A stretch of 64,000 bases of DNA. It comes from Candidatus Xenobia bacterium (GTDB taxonomy: Bacteria > Vulcanimicrobiota > Xenobia > Xenobiales > QWHO01). The translations under genes and the position numbers were made by a program. The notes below the pieces were generated by a model. That model was not told where the DNA came from and searched no databases. It saw only the letters and a program-made list of their open reading frames with translations. Shown here piece after piece: positions 1 through 4,686 of this stretch (its first letter is position 1; each line of letters begins with the position of its first letter). The stretch lies in contig BTUM01000018.1 of NCBI GenBank assembly GCA_045863235.1, positions 32,001 to 96,000 on the forward strand, read 5' to 3'.

Positions 1-145
1 TGGCAGGTTGGGTGCGCGGGGGTGGTGGCACAGGCTCGGGCTCGGGCTCCATGGCTCGGGCCAGCAGGGCGGCCGAGACCGCGGCCCCGCCCGCGAAGAG
101 CAGGTCGGCCAGGAACTGGCGGCGCTTTCGGGTCGGCTCGCTCAT
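1..145 (-). CDS. Twin-arginine-leader, Pro-rich small protein (third paralog; runs off the window edge)
   Basis: Not in the ORF track. Manual translation from the ATG at 145 gives MSEPTRKRRQFLADLLFAGGAAVSAALLARAMEPEPEPVPPPPRTQPA... It overlaps the upstream stop as ATGA (142-145) and shares its leader with the two upstream ORFs. Confidence 0.85.
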   Translation of the reverse strand, partial: MSEPTRKRRQFLADLLFAGGAAVSAALLARAMEPEPEPVPPPPRTQPA

Positions 146-420
146 TGCGGAGGAGCCACCACCTGTGGCTGGGGAGCCATCACCTGGCCCGGGACCAGCG
201 GACGAGCGCCGCCGTCGACGTTCGGCTCGACCGGCTCGCAGGTGCTGACCGGCGTGGGCGTGGGCGTGTTGACGGGCGCCACCTTGCCCATGACCTTAGG
301 CTCGGGCTCAGGAGGGGTGTTGCCCAGGTAGCGGGCTGCCAGGGCGGCCGCGCCCAGGGCCCCGCCCGCGAACAGGGCGTCGGCCAGAAATTGGCGTCGT
401 TTCAGTTTGTCGCCACTCAT
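142..420 (-). CDS. Twin-arginine-leader, Pro-rich small protein; putative radical SAM substrate (92 aa)
   Basis: Leader MSGDKLKRRQFLADALFAGGALGAAALAA, then Pro-rich repeats PKVMGKVAP, PNVDGGARP, PLVPGQVMAP. Start and stop overlap the neighbouring genes on both sides. Confidence 0.85.
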   Translation of the reverse strand: MSGDKLKRRQFLADALFAGGALGAAALAARYLGNTPPEPEPKVMGKVAPVNTPTPTPVSTCEPVEPNVDGGARPLVPGQVMAPQPQVVAPPQ

Positions 421-704
421 CGGGCTTTCACCTCGCCTTCCACGACCGGGGATGGGCTCTGGACGGGCCTCATCTCCCCCAGGGCCGGGGGAGCAACATC
501 GCCCTTGACCCGGGGCGCCTCCACCTCGCCCCGCATGCGCGGGGGCTCGGGCGATGGGGTGGACGACGGACTGGGCGGCGGTGTCGGGGGCGGATCCTTC
601 TGGGCCATGGCCCAGCGGCTCACCAGCCCGGCACCGGCCATGGCCGTGCCGGCGAACAGCATGTCGGCGATGAAGCGGCGGCGCTTGAGGCGATCTTCCG
701 ACAT
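417..704 (-). CDS. Twin-arginine-leader, Pro-rich small protein; putative radical SAM substrate (95 aa)
   Basis: 3' part of track ORF 417..1328. The ATG at 704 overlaps the rSAM stop (TGATG). Leader MSEDRLKRRRFIADMLFAGTAMAGAGLVSRWAMA, then PRMRGEVEA, PRVKGDVAP, PALGEMRP, PVVEGEVKA. Confidence 0.85.
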   Translation of the reverse strand: MSEDRLKRRRFIADMLFAGTAMAGAGLVSRWAMAQKDPPPTPPPSPSSTPSPEPPRMRGEVEAPRVKGDVAPPALGEMRPVQSPSPVVEGEVKAR

Positions 705-1735
705 CAGGCGGCCACCATCTGCAGCTCTTCGAGATACTGCCGGGCGGCTTCCACCGAGTCGCCGATCAGCTCGGCGAAGAAGCGGTGTACGCTCAACTGC
801 TGCTGGATGTCGCCCGGCATCAGCGACACGCAGGCGCAGGGGCCGCTGGTGCCGCACGAGGACATCTTCTCGGCCGAGCAGCTGGTCACCGCCTGCACCC
901 GATCGAGCAGCGGGCCGGTGTCCACCGTGCCTACCTGCACATCCACCCTGGTATCGGTGCCCACCAGGCGCGAGCAGGGGTAGAGCTTGCCCCGCGGCGA
1001 GACGGCCACGTCTTTGACCCCGAAGCTGCAGTGAGAGGTACGCGGCGCGCGCGGGTGCTGATCGGCAAACGGCGAGACGTGGTAGGGCTCGGGGGTGGCC
1101 ATGGAGAGGAAGACCACCCGGGCCATGTCGTGATAGACCCGGCGGGCCGTCTCGCGGGCGGCCTCGTCCCAGGCGGCCTCCATGTTGGGCAGCAGCGAGA
1201 CGCGCGAGACGCCCAGGCGGTACATCTGCTCCAGGGCGGCCGGAACCCCGCCGATGGTCTCGGGGTTGAGTACCATCAGCACGTGCAGGCGCTCGAGCGC
1301 TTCGGTGGCCGCCTCCAGGTTGCGCCACACCAGCTCGGAGGAGCTGCGCCCGTTGACGAAGGGGCGATGGCGGTCGTGGTCGGCCCCCATCCCGTCGATG
1401 CTGAGGGCCACCCAGAAGCCGTAATGGCGCAGGAAGTCGAGCTGCTTTTTGGTGAGGATGGTGGCGTTGGTGGTCAACGACAGCTCCAGGCGCCGGCCCT
1501 GGCGCTCTGCAAGGCGCGTGGCCAGGCGGGTCAGCCGGCTCATGGTCTTGAACTGCAGCATCGGCTCCCCGCCAAAGAACGAGACCCCCACGGTCTCCTC
1601 ACGCGGCCCGTGGAAGGCCATCTTGAGAGCCTTCCAGCCCAACTCCACCGGCATCGAGCGGTTGAACTTGTCGCCTGTGTAGCAGTAGCTGCAGGCCAGG
1701 TTGCACTGATGGGTCAGAACCAGCGAGACGCGCAC
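704..1735 (-). CDS. Radical SAM protein, SPASM/Twitch-type (anSME-like subgroup)
   Basis: CxxxCxxC (CNLACSYC), FFGGEP and LSIDG motifs. Auxiliary-cluster motif CSFG-x8-RGKLYPC plus further C-terminal Cys residues. GAGGGG RBS before the GTG start. Confidence 0.93.
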   Translation of the reverse strand: MRVSLVLTHQCNLACSYCYTGDKFNRSMPVELGWKALKMAFHGPREETVGVSFFGGEPMLQFKTMSRLTRLATRLAERQGRRLELSLTTNATILTKKQLDFLRHYGFWVALSIDGMGADHDRHRPFVNGRSSSELVWRNLEAATEALERLHVLMVLNPETIGGVPAALEQMYRLGVSRVSLLPNMEAAWDEAARETARRVYHDMARVVFLSMATPEPYHVSPFADQHPRAPRTSHCSFGVKDVAVSPRGKLYPCSRLVGTDTRVDVQVGTVDTGPLLDRVQAVTSCSAEKMSSCGTSGPCACVSLMPGDIQQQLSVHRFFAELIGDSVEAARQYLEELQMVAA

Positions 1736-1830: not shown

Positions 1831-3255
1831 TCAGAGCAGGGGCACGAAAAGCCGGGCGACCCTGGTCCCCAGACGCGTGGCCAGGTTCAATCGCGTCAGC
1901 AGGTCGATGGAGAGCTTGCGAGCCACCGCAAAGTCGCTCGCGAGCATCGCTTCCATCTTCAGGGCGAAGGCCTGGTCAGCCACGATCAGGTTGCCCTCGA
2001 AGTTGAGGAACAAGGACCGGCTGTCCAGGTTCGAGCTGCCCACCCACGAGAGCCAGTCGTCCACCAGCATCACCTTGGAGTGGTTGTAATGGGGATACTC
2101 GTAGAACTGGATTCGGGTGTCACGAAGCTCGGGGATCAGGGCCAGCGCGGCCAGACGCATGGCGGGCTCGAAGCGAGCGGGGGGAAGAAGGATGCGCACC
2201 TCCACTCCCCGCAGATCGGCCATCTTCAAAGCTTTCAGGAGGGAAGAGTCGGGCAAGAAGTAGGGAGAGGCCAGCCACAGGCGGTGCCGGGCAGCGTTGA
2301 TGGACTCGAGGTAGGACATCACTCCAACCTGCATCGTATCGGCGGGCCCGCTGCTGAGGTAGGTGCAGGCCTGGTTTCCCCCGGCGGCCGGATGAGGCGT
2401 CCAGTCGACCGTGGGCAGCTCGCCCCGCGAGGCCCAGTAGAAGTCCTCGCAGAAGGCCAGCTGCACCCCCATCACGGCCGGCCCCTCGAGCACGGCATGA
2501 GTATCGCGCCAGGGGCCGAAGCGAGGGTCGCGGCCCAGGTGCCTGTCAGCGATGTTCATGCCTCCCACCAGGGCGACCCGCCCGTCCACCACGATGATCT
2601 TGCGATGGTTGCAGAAGTTCCACTGAAAGCTGTGACGCAGGCCTCGGGCGGCCCGGAAGGCCCTGGCATGGATGCCGGCTGCGCGCATCTCGTTGAGGAA
2701 GGCGCCTCGAATGGTGGGGCTGCCCAGCTCATCATAGACGAAGTAGACGCGCACTCCCTGGCGGGCCTTCTCGATCAGGTGTCGTTGCAGCGCCCGCCCG
2801 GAGTCGTCGTTGTGGACCTTGTAGAACAAGACCAGCACGTATTCCGTGGCCCGCTCGATCTCTTCGTGCATGCGAGCGTAGTGAGCCGGGCCGTCGATGA
2901 GTAGCTCCAGCTTGCACGAGTGGGTGAAAGGCGTGCGAGCGAGCTTCTCGAGCACCCGCAAGTTGGGGTCGTGGTAGCACCAGCGCGAAAGACCCTCCAG
3001 GATTTCGCGAATCGGCTGCGTCGAGCCTTGCCAGGCACTGGCTCTCAGCGGGTTGACGTAGCCTTCGAAGTGGGTGCTGCCGAAGACCAGGTAGAAGGGA
3101 AGCACCACGGCCGGGAAGGCCAGCAGGCTCAAAGACCAGGCCAGGGCTCCCTGGGGGGTGCTGGATTTCAAGATTGCATGCCCGGCGGCCAGCAGGCCCA
3201 GAAAGTGAAGGGTGGAGAGGACGATGAGCAAGGCTTCTCCCATGACGATGACCAT
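1831..3255 (-). CDS. cls: Cardiolipin synthase (phospholipase D family)
   Basis: Two HKD motifs (NHRKIIVVDG, NHSKVMLVDD), two N-terminal TM segments, and WRDTH, SPYFLP and GSSNLDSRS motifs. Confidence 0.92.
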   Translation of the reverse strand: MVIVMGEALLIVLSTLHFLGLLAAGHAILKSSTPQGALAWSLSLLAFPAVVLPFYLVFGSTHFEGYVNPLRASAWQGSTQPIREILEGLSRWCYHDPNLRVLEKLARTPFTHSCKLELLIDGPAHYARMHEEIERATEYVLVLFYKVHNDDSGRALQRHLIEKARQGVRVYFVYDELGSPTIRGAFLNEMRAAGIHARAFRAARGLRHSFQWNFCNHRKIIVVDGRVALVGGMNIADRHLGRDPRFGPWRDTHAVLEGPAVMGVQLAFCEDFYWASRGELPTVDWTPHPAAGGNQACTYLSSGPADTMQVGVMSYLESINAARHRLWLASPYFLPDSSLLKALKMADLRGVEVRILLPPARFEPAMRLAALALIPELRDTRIQFYEYPHYNHSKVMLVDDWLSWVGSSNLDSRSLFLNFEGNLIVADQAFALKMEAMLASDFAVARKLSIDLLTRLNLATRLGTRVARLFVPLL

Positions 3256-4329: not shown

Positions 4330-4686
4330 ATGGATCTCACCCCCGAGGATCGGATCAAGGTTTCTCAGGCCATCGCCAGCTGCTGGGCCATGCCCGAGTT
4401 CAAGGAACGCTTTCTGAGCGCTCCCCGCGAGGTGCTCGCCGAGCTTGGGGTGCAGATTCCTCCCGAGGTCGAGGTGCGCGTGGTCGCCGACACGCCCGAG
4501 GCGGTCTACGTCATTTTGCCTCGTCCCGATCTGCCCCAGTTCCTGGCCGCCGTGCTGCCCGGCGCCATCGGCCGCGAGCTGCGACTGGTGCAAAACGACG
4601 CGCGCCATCTGTACCTGCCGCTGCCCATGCCACCCTCGGGGTTGGTCAGCGCCATGCAGACCGGACTGGAGGGCATCGAGCCTTAG
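4330..4686 (+). CDS. NHLP-leader/nitrile hydratase alpha-like small protein without an evident core peptide
   Basis: WAMPEFKERFLSAPREVLAELGVQIPPEVEVRVVADTPEAVYVILP matches the NHLP leader pattern. Strong GGAGG RBS. No terminal double-Gly motif. Confidence 0.75.
   Translation: MDLTPEDRIKVSQAIASCWAMPEFKERFLSAPREVLAELGVQIPPEVEVRVVADTPEAVYVILPRPDLPQFLAAVLPGAIGRELRLVQNDARHLYLPLPMPPSGLVSAMQTGLEGIEP

Follow-up and report, generated by a model that had tools for sequence, protein, structure and literature searches.

A candidate peptide-modification system of Candidatus Xenobia: a radical SAM enzyme gene followed by tandem genes for peptides with twin-arginine-like leaders and glycine-centred repeats

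Several described systems come close to the locus reported here, a radical S-adenosylmethionine (SAM) enzyme gene followed by a tandem array of short peptide genes, which lies at the left end of a 64,000-nucleotide stretch of DNA from a Candidatus Xenobia bacterium (source-genome contig coordinates G000:C18:32001-96000; "the window" hereafter means this whole stretch). The best matches in both sequence and fold are the ranthipeptide maturases CteB and PapB, whose genes, like the enzyme gene here, adjoin those of their peptides CteA (SCIFF) and PapA. The radical SAM/SPASM enzymes TvgB and TigE resemble it in acting on repeated Gly-containing aliphatic units, in TvgA and TigB, with no Cys or aromatic donor (PMC9062424, PMC10878394). 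The bicyclostreptin enzyme HghB forms a bond between a backbone amide nitrogen and a Gly C-alpha, with no reactive side chain required, and offers a precedent for radical SAM chemistry at that atom (PMC11002830). In the antiphage system HXS (HxsA-D) a radical SAM-matured repeat protein with a signal peptide is exported to the periplasm, an example of how such a protein can act in phage defence (PMC13128918). Finally, the substrates of ChrH and DybH, multinuclear non-haem iron-dependent oxidative enzymes (MNIOs), carry the cores of ribosomally made, post-translationally modified peptides (RiPPs) behind export signals and are modified in the cytoplasm (PMC12636315).

The present locus resembles radical SAM RiPP systems, but we could place it in none of the named families considered by the tests that define them; it is apparently undescribed. 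No description of this enzyme-peptide family was found in the literature searched, subscription papers lying mostly outside that search, and the searchable supplementary files of PMC9062424 hold no match to it. We propose a minimal RiPP-like system of one radical SAM enzyme lacking a RiPP recognition element (RRE) and 1-8 tandem precursors, with more precursors elsewhere in the genome. The leader would dock on the enzyme, the peptides would be its substrates and export would resemble twin-arginine translocation (Tat); taken together, and leaving the chemistry aside, we regard this as probable. The features in the window are these.

704..1735, minus strand: radical SAM enzyme gene, 343 amino acids (aa), GTG start; without N-terminal RRE, SPASM domain truncated.
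1682..1705, minus strand: CxxxCxxC cluster motif of the enzyme (C11, C15, C18; residues 11-18), invariant in 19/19 aligned orthologues.
830..1030, minus strand: auxiliary-cluster region of the enzyme (C236, C254, C294, C300, C302); three other SPASM cysteines lost.
417..704, minus strand: predicted precursor peptide 1, 95 aa, Cys-free, with four Gly-core units.
618..686, minus strand: leader of peptide 1, twin-arginine motif and 15-residue uncharged helix.
420..536, minus strand: core units of peptide 1 as read from the sequence, MRGEVEAP, VKGDVAPP, ALGEMRP and VEGEVKAR.
142..420, minus strand: predicted precursor peptide 2, 92 aa, one Cys; leader at 334-402, core units at 274-294 and 172-219.
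1..145, minus strand: 5' part of predicted precursor peptide 3, 93 aa in all, leader at 59-127, no Cys.

The genes are chained by stop/start overlaps, TGATG at 704 and ATGA at 417-420 and again at 142-145, as an earlier note made from the letters alone had described. That note had also recognized that two of the peptides are hidden in or missing from a list of open reading frames (ORFs): in that list peptide 1 is buried at the end of a 303-aa frame, and the frame of peptide 3 is open at its 3' end. The stop of peptide 3 falls 136 bases to the left of the window (G000:C18:31864-32145), and its two looser core units both lie outside the window; since the next long ORF leftward runs on the opposite strand, the array comprises exactly three peptides. 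Their leaders, KRRRFIADMLFAG, KRRQFLADALFAG and KRRQFLADLLFAG, all match the shared pattern that had been noted, with the consensus RRxF[LI]ADxLFAG followed by a hydrophobic stretch. Compared with same-genus orthologues, codon differences in the three peptides are concentrated at third positions, and the counts of synonymous-only against amino-acid-changing codons are 24/10, 27/12 and 25/29 for peptides 1, 2 and 3; on this evidence all three are coding in these frames. Synonymous divergence from the same-genus orthologue affects 24-27 of about 93 codons in the peptides, a larger share than in the enzyme, where it affects 50 of 343. A promoter scan gave 0 promoter-like sites, and a terminator scan gave 2 terminator-like sites, both inside genes, against 0.7 expected. 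Contigs from RNA libraries (4/4 runs) give low-depth, partial coverage of the enzyme and peptide genes, and of the flanks too; they were set aside, as contigs cannot show transcription.

The association of leader and enzyme extends beyond this locus. Among 61 related genomes the enzyme occurs in 18, and the leader, searched for with a model built from peptides beside these enzymes, also in 18, of which 17 are common to both. Given how that model was built, the informative part is that the leader went undetected in 42 of the 43 enzyme-free genomes. In the only genome with the enzyme alone the gene is cut by a contig end, and the only genome with the leader alone is 65% complete. Two of the 23 enzyme matches have no downstream DNA because of contig ends; 18 of the other 21 are directly followed by 1-8 leader peptides, and in one of the remaining three a degenerate hydrophobic peptide lies some 350 bases downstream. 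The RiPP-like pairing proposed in the earlier note, for which it had suggested just such a co-occurrence search with a hidden Markov model (HMM) of the leader, is therefore supported. We give no P value for the co-occurrence because the genomes are kin, and class-wide searches, which returned 44 of the same genomes, added no independent support. Inspection of neighbour clusters found no transporter, protease or RRE gene recurring beside the Xenobia loci.

The enzyme belongs to the radical SAM superfamily, as its CxxxCxxC motif and the partial TIM barrel recovered by structure model and fold search attest. It matches PF04055 over residues 6-167 (E 4.6e-20, 72.9 bits against a cut-off of 29.5), and its AlphaFold model (pLDDT, the predicted score of the local distance difference test, 85) finds its nearest solved structure in CteB (PDB 5wgg/5why; template modelling score 0.69-0.76, 19-21% identity). 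None of the NCBIfam cut-offs is reached: the best score, to PapB (NF047865), is 170.6 bits against 340, others of the ranthipeptide-maturase set (PapB, CteB, QhpD) give 99.8 against 425 and 113.9 against 453, HxsB gives 81 against 370, and the triceptide/spliceotide models score far below cut-off. A PADLOC scan of the locus returned a generic viperin radical SAM domain as its sole match, and an ESM Atlas search gave nothing usable (0.86 as the best feature score, structural matches below the threshold). The domain scan and the model agree with the earlier observation that the enzyme has no RRE, the radical SAM domain already beginning at residue 2-6; of the five PqqD matches in the source genome none is on the peptide-locus contig. 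Thus, unlike CteB and PapB, the enzyme reaches half the NCBIfam cut-off, has no RRE either fused or alongside, and has lost three SPASM cysteines while carrying one extra, and its peptides have a Tat-like leader.

That it is "SPASM-type", as had been stated, holds for the auxiliary-cluster cysteines but not for the whole domain, which is truncated and has no match to PF13186. In an alignment of 13 Xenobia enzymes with 68 other members of the clade, C236, C254, C300 and C302 are present in 13/13 and 68/68 and C294 is nearly invariant, whereas the 13 Xenobia enzymes lack three further Cys columns that 97% of the 68 distant members keep. The canonical two-cluster SPASM pattern, defined as CX2CX5CX3C plus a distal Cys (PMC10878394), is accordingly found in the distant members and not in the Xenobia enzymes. 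A distant member aligned to CteB carries CX2CX5CX3C and an extra Cys; C302 corresponds to this extra Cys, at a position where CteB has Ala. When the Cys pattern is read with the ligand assignment in PMC10878394, it suggests that the Xenobia enzyme keeps auxiliary cluster I only and that its spare Cys either occupies the fourth site or acts as a hydrogen donor.

Most close homologues of the enzyme carry the label Eremiobacterota, Vulcanimicrobiota or Xenobia. In a FastTree phylogeny the other three SPASM enzymes of the source genome root outside this clade; as the deep nodes of the tree are weak, we claim no order of events. Two weaker matches (genomes G001 and G005; about 150 bits) were excluded, their neighbours being tail-fibre-like by eye and no leader peptide being seen. 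An unrelated SPASM enzyme stands beside long phage-tail-fibre-like genes in two genomes (L140:3369-6937 and L141), and at L140 a small ORF next to it is presumably IscU-like.

These data bear on whether the peptides are substrates at all. The enzyme might instead serve another client, in the manner of a sulfatase maturase, or be a chaperone only, and it is true that 3 of the 21 enzyme genes stand without an adjacent leader peptide and that the SPASM domain is eroded. But both genomes that hold those three genes encode leader peptides elsewhere, the radical SAM motif is invariant, and the placement of the other SPASM enzymes of the genome outside the clade also argues against it. The sulfatase-maturase model TIGR03942 gives 69 bits against a cut-off of 349 and no sulfatase recurs, by eye, among the neighbour clusters, so that the kinship with sulfatase maturases which the earlier note had considered is not found. 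We therefore regard this alternative as very improbable, and the peptides as quite probably the substrates.

Modelling of the enzyme-leader complex, which had been suggested from the sequence, places the leader helix on the enzyme. The input was the enzyme with residues 1-75 of peptide 1, SAM and two clusters; the complex score was 0.81 and that of the best of 3 controls 0.01, with runs agreeing in at least 85% of contacts and a partner pLDDT of at least 57. The tightest contacts, with the lowest expected errors, join peptide residues R8, R9, I12, A13, L16 and F17 to the enzyme at residues 165-175 and 207-218. Positions 54-57 and 59-60 of the peptide, the first core Gly among them, are also in the modelled interface, as are the barrel-strand residues 88, 108, 110, 153, 178, 180, 182 and 221 and C236 of the enzyme, which suggests that the first core sits inside the barrel. 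Residues of the modelled patch are commoner in Xenobia than in the other subgroups (E169 in 7/12, Y172 in 8/12, R173 in 8/12), and the patch differs in one Xenobia subclade that has Thr or Ser at peptide position 13, a single lineage event and so weak evidence. As a first step of the proposed mechanism, then, the leader helix RRxF[LI]ADxLF would, with fair probability on the strength of this model, dock on the outer barrel helices at about residues 165-175 and 207-218.

In the source genome an HMM search for the leader over 135,929 six-frame ORFs recovered the six training sequences at E<=1.1e-13 and one further match at E=0.074, with nothing else under 0.45; this separation of the training sequences from all other ORFs indicates that the leader match is not due to chance. 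Across the genome set there are 69 leader matches, 40 beside the enzyme and 29 stand-alone. By eye, 28 of the latter were sorted into 20 with Gly cores, 6 with YPSD repeats and 2 cut or degenerate. One YPSD peptide of the source genome exceeds the cut-off of the microviridin precursor model NF033738 (30.3 bits against 26). The seventh, weaker leader of the HMM search (E 0.074) precedes a CPACGM core directly before an MNIO gene (PF05114, E 2.6e-45) at L131:3720-4909 (G000:C1, about 215,700-216,900), a probable chryseobasin-like locus and a point of likeness to the ChrH and DybH systems, from which ours differs in its class of enzyme.

Leader-headed microviridin-type YPSD peptides lie at L130:3370-3720 (G000:C93) and G000:C33:24439-24777, with orthologues in three other genomes; no ligase was seen next to them at either place. 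MvdD-like ligases are encoded on other contigs of the source genome, with scores under the family cut-off. The leader-headed peptides are possibly exported graspetides modified in trans. Contigs C53, C57, C84, C114 and C156 of the source genome carry several long multi-repeat YPSD precursors, three of which share a contig with MvdD-like ATP-grasp ligases.

This wider use of the leader favours another explanation, in which the leader is a shared export or anchoring module only and the enzyme recognizes the core motif itself. Core-only recognition is described for ChrH-type MNIOs, which act on CPACGMG in proteins bearing signal peptides of the signal peptidase I or lipoprotein types (PMC12636315), and distant members of the enzyme clade combine other leaders (xPxYP..RR) with similar cores. 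Against it, the lowest expected errors in the modelled interface are those where the conserved face of the leader meets the enzyme, and I/L12, L16 and F17 are conserved in 55-58 of the 58 peptides, beyond what export should need. We judge core-only recognition improbable. The suggestion in the earlier note that the leader is the enzyme's recognition element is thus upheld as far as a likely docking site goes, but not as an exclusive role, the same leader standing on other RiPP types.

We also asked how far the leader resembles a Tat signal. Pairs of Arg are present in 119/119 database homologues whose leader was located without requiring RR (of 120 examined, 1 had no leader match), the RR motif is followed in 58/58 by at least 13 uncharged residues in a row (mean hydropathy 1.7), and the RRxF[LI] motif with a weakly hydrophobic h-region, a feature of Tat substrates, is present in the peptides. 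The spacing RRx[FL][LI] is the exact Tat consensus. The source genome encodes TatC, and peptide 2 has a weak match to the Rieske Tat-signal family PF10399 (E 0.021). Alternatively, the two Arg might not be a working Tat signal but the basic end of an enzyme-binding helix that doubles as an uncleaved membrane anchor. Asp follows RRxFLA in 53/58 leaders, with Asp or Asn after RRxFLx in 58/58; an AxA site is present in only 25/58 and a lipobox in none of the 58 peptides; and TIGR01409 matches 13/33 peptides at E<=1 (best 0.0014), peptide 1 having no match. One distant partner does exceed the TIGR01409 cut-off, and no dedicated exporter is linked to the loci, which together with the Tat-consensus spacing, the constancy of RR and the presence of TatC leads us to consider such an anchor unlikely. 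Tat export, resting on resemblance of motif, is the somewhat better supported possibility: the released leader would act as a Tat signal, and the modified peptide would probably be exported and then cleaved or anchored in the envelope.

The Tat proofreading chaperones TorD and DmsD bind the twin-arginine signal until maturation is complete, and in the modelled complex the enzyme likewise buries R8 and R9, an analogy that rests on one predicted complex; TorD and DmsD, however, are not enzymes acting on the passenger backbone. A bolder speculation, which we hold to be rather doubtful, is that the twin-arginine signal is itself the RiPP leader, that the RRE-less enzyme with its single auxiliary cluster holds it during modification of the Gly backbone in each repeat and so gates export, and that the leader has been reused on microviridin- and MNIO-type cores, so that the lineage would possess a modular family of modified peptides targeted to the envelope.

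The tails had been described as divergent and Pro-rich. They are Pro-rich (26% Pro), but beyond this they carry a defined, spaced repeat, with the strict form [VLIP]-x-G-[EDKR]-[VMP]-x-x-P, which the first two core units of peptide 1 fit. In 56 tails, one of which is that of a distant member, this strict motif was counted 86 times, against 6.0+-2.5, maximum 17, in 1000 shuffles. An expectation-maximization (EM) search of 136 non-redundant tails, with no Gly forced, returned [VLIP]-x-G-[EDKR]-[VMP]-[VA]-[AP]-P at about 3 sites per tail, with Gly at 0.99 and Pro(+5) at 0.81; hydrophobic residues are enriched at -2 and +2 of the Gly. W, F and Y together make up less than 2% of tail residues and the motif has no aromatic position, so that the aromatic core residue of triceptides and spliceotides (aromatic-x-x or Tyr-Gly) is absent. 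Compared with the repeats of TvgA and TigB, those here are loose, with Pro-rich linkers between them and an export-like leader ahead, and in contrast to HXS, with its two radical SAM enzymes, HxsD and His-x-Ser repeats (PMC13128918), the present system has one enzyme, Gly cores and no His-x-Ser repeats.

In the mechanism that we favour, the Pro-rich tether would let each phi-x-G-x-phi-x-x-P unit enter the barrel in turn. The 5'-deoxyadenosyl radical might then abstract the C-alpha hydrogen of the near-invariant Gly, a step to which we give somewhat less than an even chance. The remaining auxiliary cluster would oxidise the resulting radical, and a neighbouring backbone or side-chain nucleophile would trap it with a change of -2 Da per unit. 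We favour this site because Gly is the only near-invariant core residue, because a Gly C-alpha radical is stabilised and because HghB sets a precedent. HghB acts in this way at His-Gly, but its system has a second radical SAM enzyme, an RRE and a single His-Gly-His core (PMC11002830).

The readings set against ours are not all mutually exclusive, and one keeps the same system but moves the radical site beside the Gly, so that a flanking aliphatic residue would be epimerised, desaturated or cyclopropanated, with Gly retained for steric access. A Cys serves as hydrogen donor in radical SAM epimerases, and the spare conserved Cys of this enzyme could do so here. In repeats that contain Gly, TvgB and TigE act on Val or Ile (PMC9062424, PMC10878394), PlpX is described as requiring Tyr-Gly, and the hydrophobic enrichment at -2 and +2 is in keeping with such a site. 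Yet apart from Pro(+5) no flanking position exceeds 35% for any one residue, and the GYW motif of cyclopropyl synthases is found in 0/19 and 0/84 sequences, a difference from TvgB and TigE, the latter of which also has an RRE and two auxiliary clusters (PMC10878394). A flanking site thus seems to us unlikely, though less so than core-only recognition or an uncleaved anchor.

Alternatively, the enzyme could form thioethers as CteB, PapB and QhpD do, the single Cys that most peptides carry being joined to a core residue of the same or of another peptide. Thioether formers are indeed the nearest families and folds, and Cys is under-dispersed in the 136 tails, 85 having exactly one and 24 none against 48 expected. 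However, peptides 1 and 3, two of the three substrates predicted here, are Cys-free, as are 19/125 core-bearing tails; cores outnumber Cys; no single Cys-Gly spacing emerges, with modest peaks at +6 and -14 only; and the extra Cys of the enzyme could occupy the site that CteB leaves open. We rate thioether formation as distinctly improbable, and one guess for the single tail Cys is a disulfide formed after export.

The atypical leader features given above weigh against our proposal, as do several further points. The genomes behind the co-occurrence are related and not independent, the pattern consisting mostly of two families with both components and one with neither. The leader is not specific to the radical SAM enzyme, since it also heads microviridin-type peptides, 6 of the 28 sorted stand-alone copies being of the YPSD type, and, in a weaker version, an MNIO-linked one. 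The shuffle and EM tests are partly circular, the motif or search profile having been derived from these very peptides. The core regular expression shows no enrichment beside 68 distant enzymes (0.39/kb against 0.33 and 0.32 in antisense and distal controls). A background-corrected Xenobia core profile is enriched about 3-fold on the sense strand within 1.5 kb of the same enzymes (37 matches, 0.198/kb against 0.054-0.070/kb), but it was chosen after the first test showed no enrichment, and both results stand. The score mark used for the complex was reached by 116/157 solved and 2/215 mismatched pairs, counts that serve only as a rough calibration because our own alignments and small-molecule ligands were used. 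As leader-bound radical SAM structures exist (ChlB-ChlA, SuiB-SuiA and CteB, at 14-21% identity to the enzyme), the pass may reflect memorised structures or likeness to them, and the model gives no Gly-to-SAM distance. Lastly, the Xenobia enzymes lack a D-x-K motif as well as the three Cys that the rest of the clade keeps, and for this reason their chemistry may differ from that of the rest.

The enzyme clade itself is wide. We took the best 80 of at least 568 confirmed relatives, 68 of the 80 at 28-38% identity and labelled Myxococcota, Planctomycetota, Verrucomicrobiota, Lentisphaerae, Acidobacteriota and others; four of these distant members were also under the PapB cut-off (176-211 against 340). 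Sorting by eye of the peptide partners gave groups of 24, 12 and 14, with 18 unassigned. In the group of 24 the partners bear xPxYP..RR leaders and Gly units of a similar kind, and some also a lipobox-like Cys or LysM. In the group of 12 the enzyme is accompanied by a hydrophobic peptide carrying xGAxRS, by a signal peptidase I gene (TIGR02227 over cut-off) or by both; these loci (L047, L049, L050, L065, L070, L080, L082, L084, L090, L093, L102, L103), with peptides of the form xGAxRSxRLx[WF], are a candidate for a system of its own. The 14 (L053, L056-L058, L061, L073, L077, L081, L083, L085, L088, L091, L097, L098) have a partner of 120-160 aa with GGxxxPHxH before a helical domain and no obvious signal, and the three scanned had no family match. 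In the tree these 14 form one branch and 11 of the group of 12 a second; the group of 24 belongs to a third, together with most of the unassigned. By eye a Gly-centred motif is common to the partners of the clade, and the chemistry may differ among its groups because the barrel residues differ. LysM domains were found in 2/15 scanned distant partners, and HxsA binds peptidoglycan (PMC13128918). The LysM and lipobox-like features of the distant partners suggest an envelope role for the product.

Two neighbours in the window deserve mention. A cardiolipin synthase gene (1831-3255, minus strand; TIGR04265 over cut-off) lies upstream of the enzyme gene on the same strand, an arrangement common to just one same-genus locus. 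A protein with an NHLP leader (4330-4686, plus strand; above the TIGR03793 cut-off) has a doubled leader-like segment and a short tail, and its homologue is directly upstream of the enzyme gene, and divergent from it, at L026.

Overall, the observation from which we started is confirmed and its interpretation is partly supported. The analysis defines an unnamed clade of radical SAM maturases, spread over several phyla, together with its predicted substrates, and since the donors on which the known classes rely (Cys, aromatic or acidic) are missing from these, their modification may plausibly involve a new backbone chemistry. With only two components, the system lends itself to straightforward co-expression. 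Should the leader serve as docking site and Tat signal alike, modification would be tied to export, an arrangement for which we found no description among RiPP radical SAM enzymes in the literature searched. If one leader does serve three RiPP types, this would be a natural case of leader-core shuffling.

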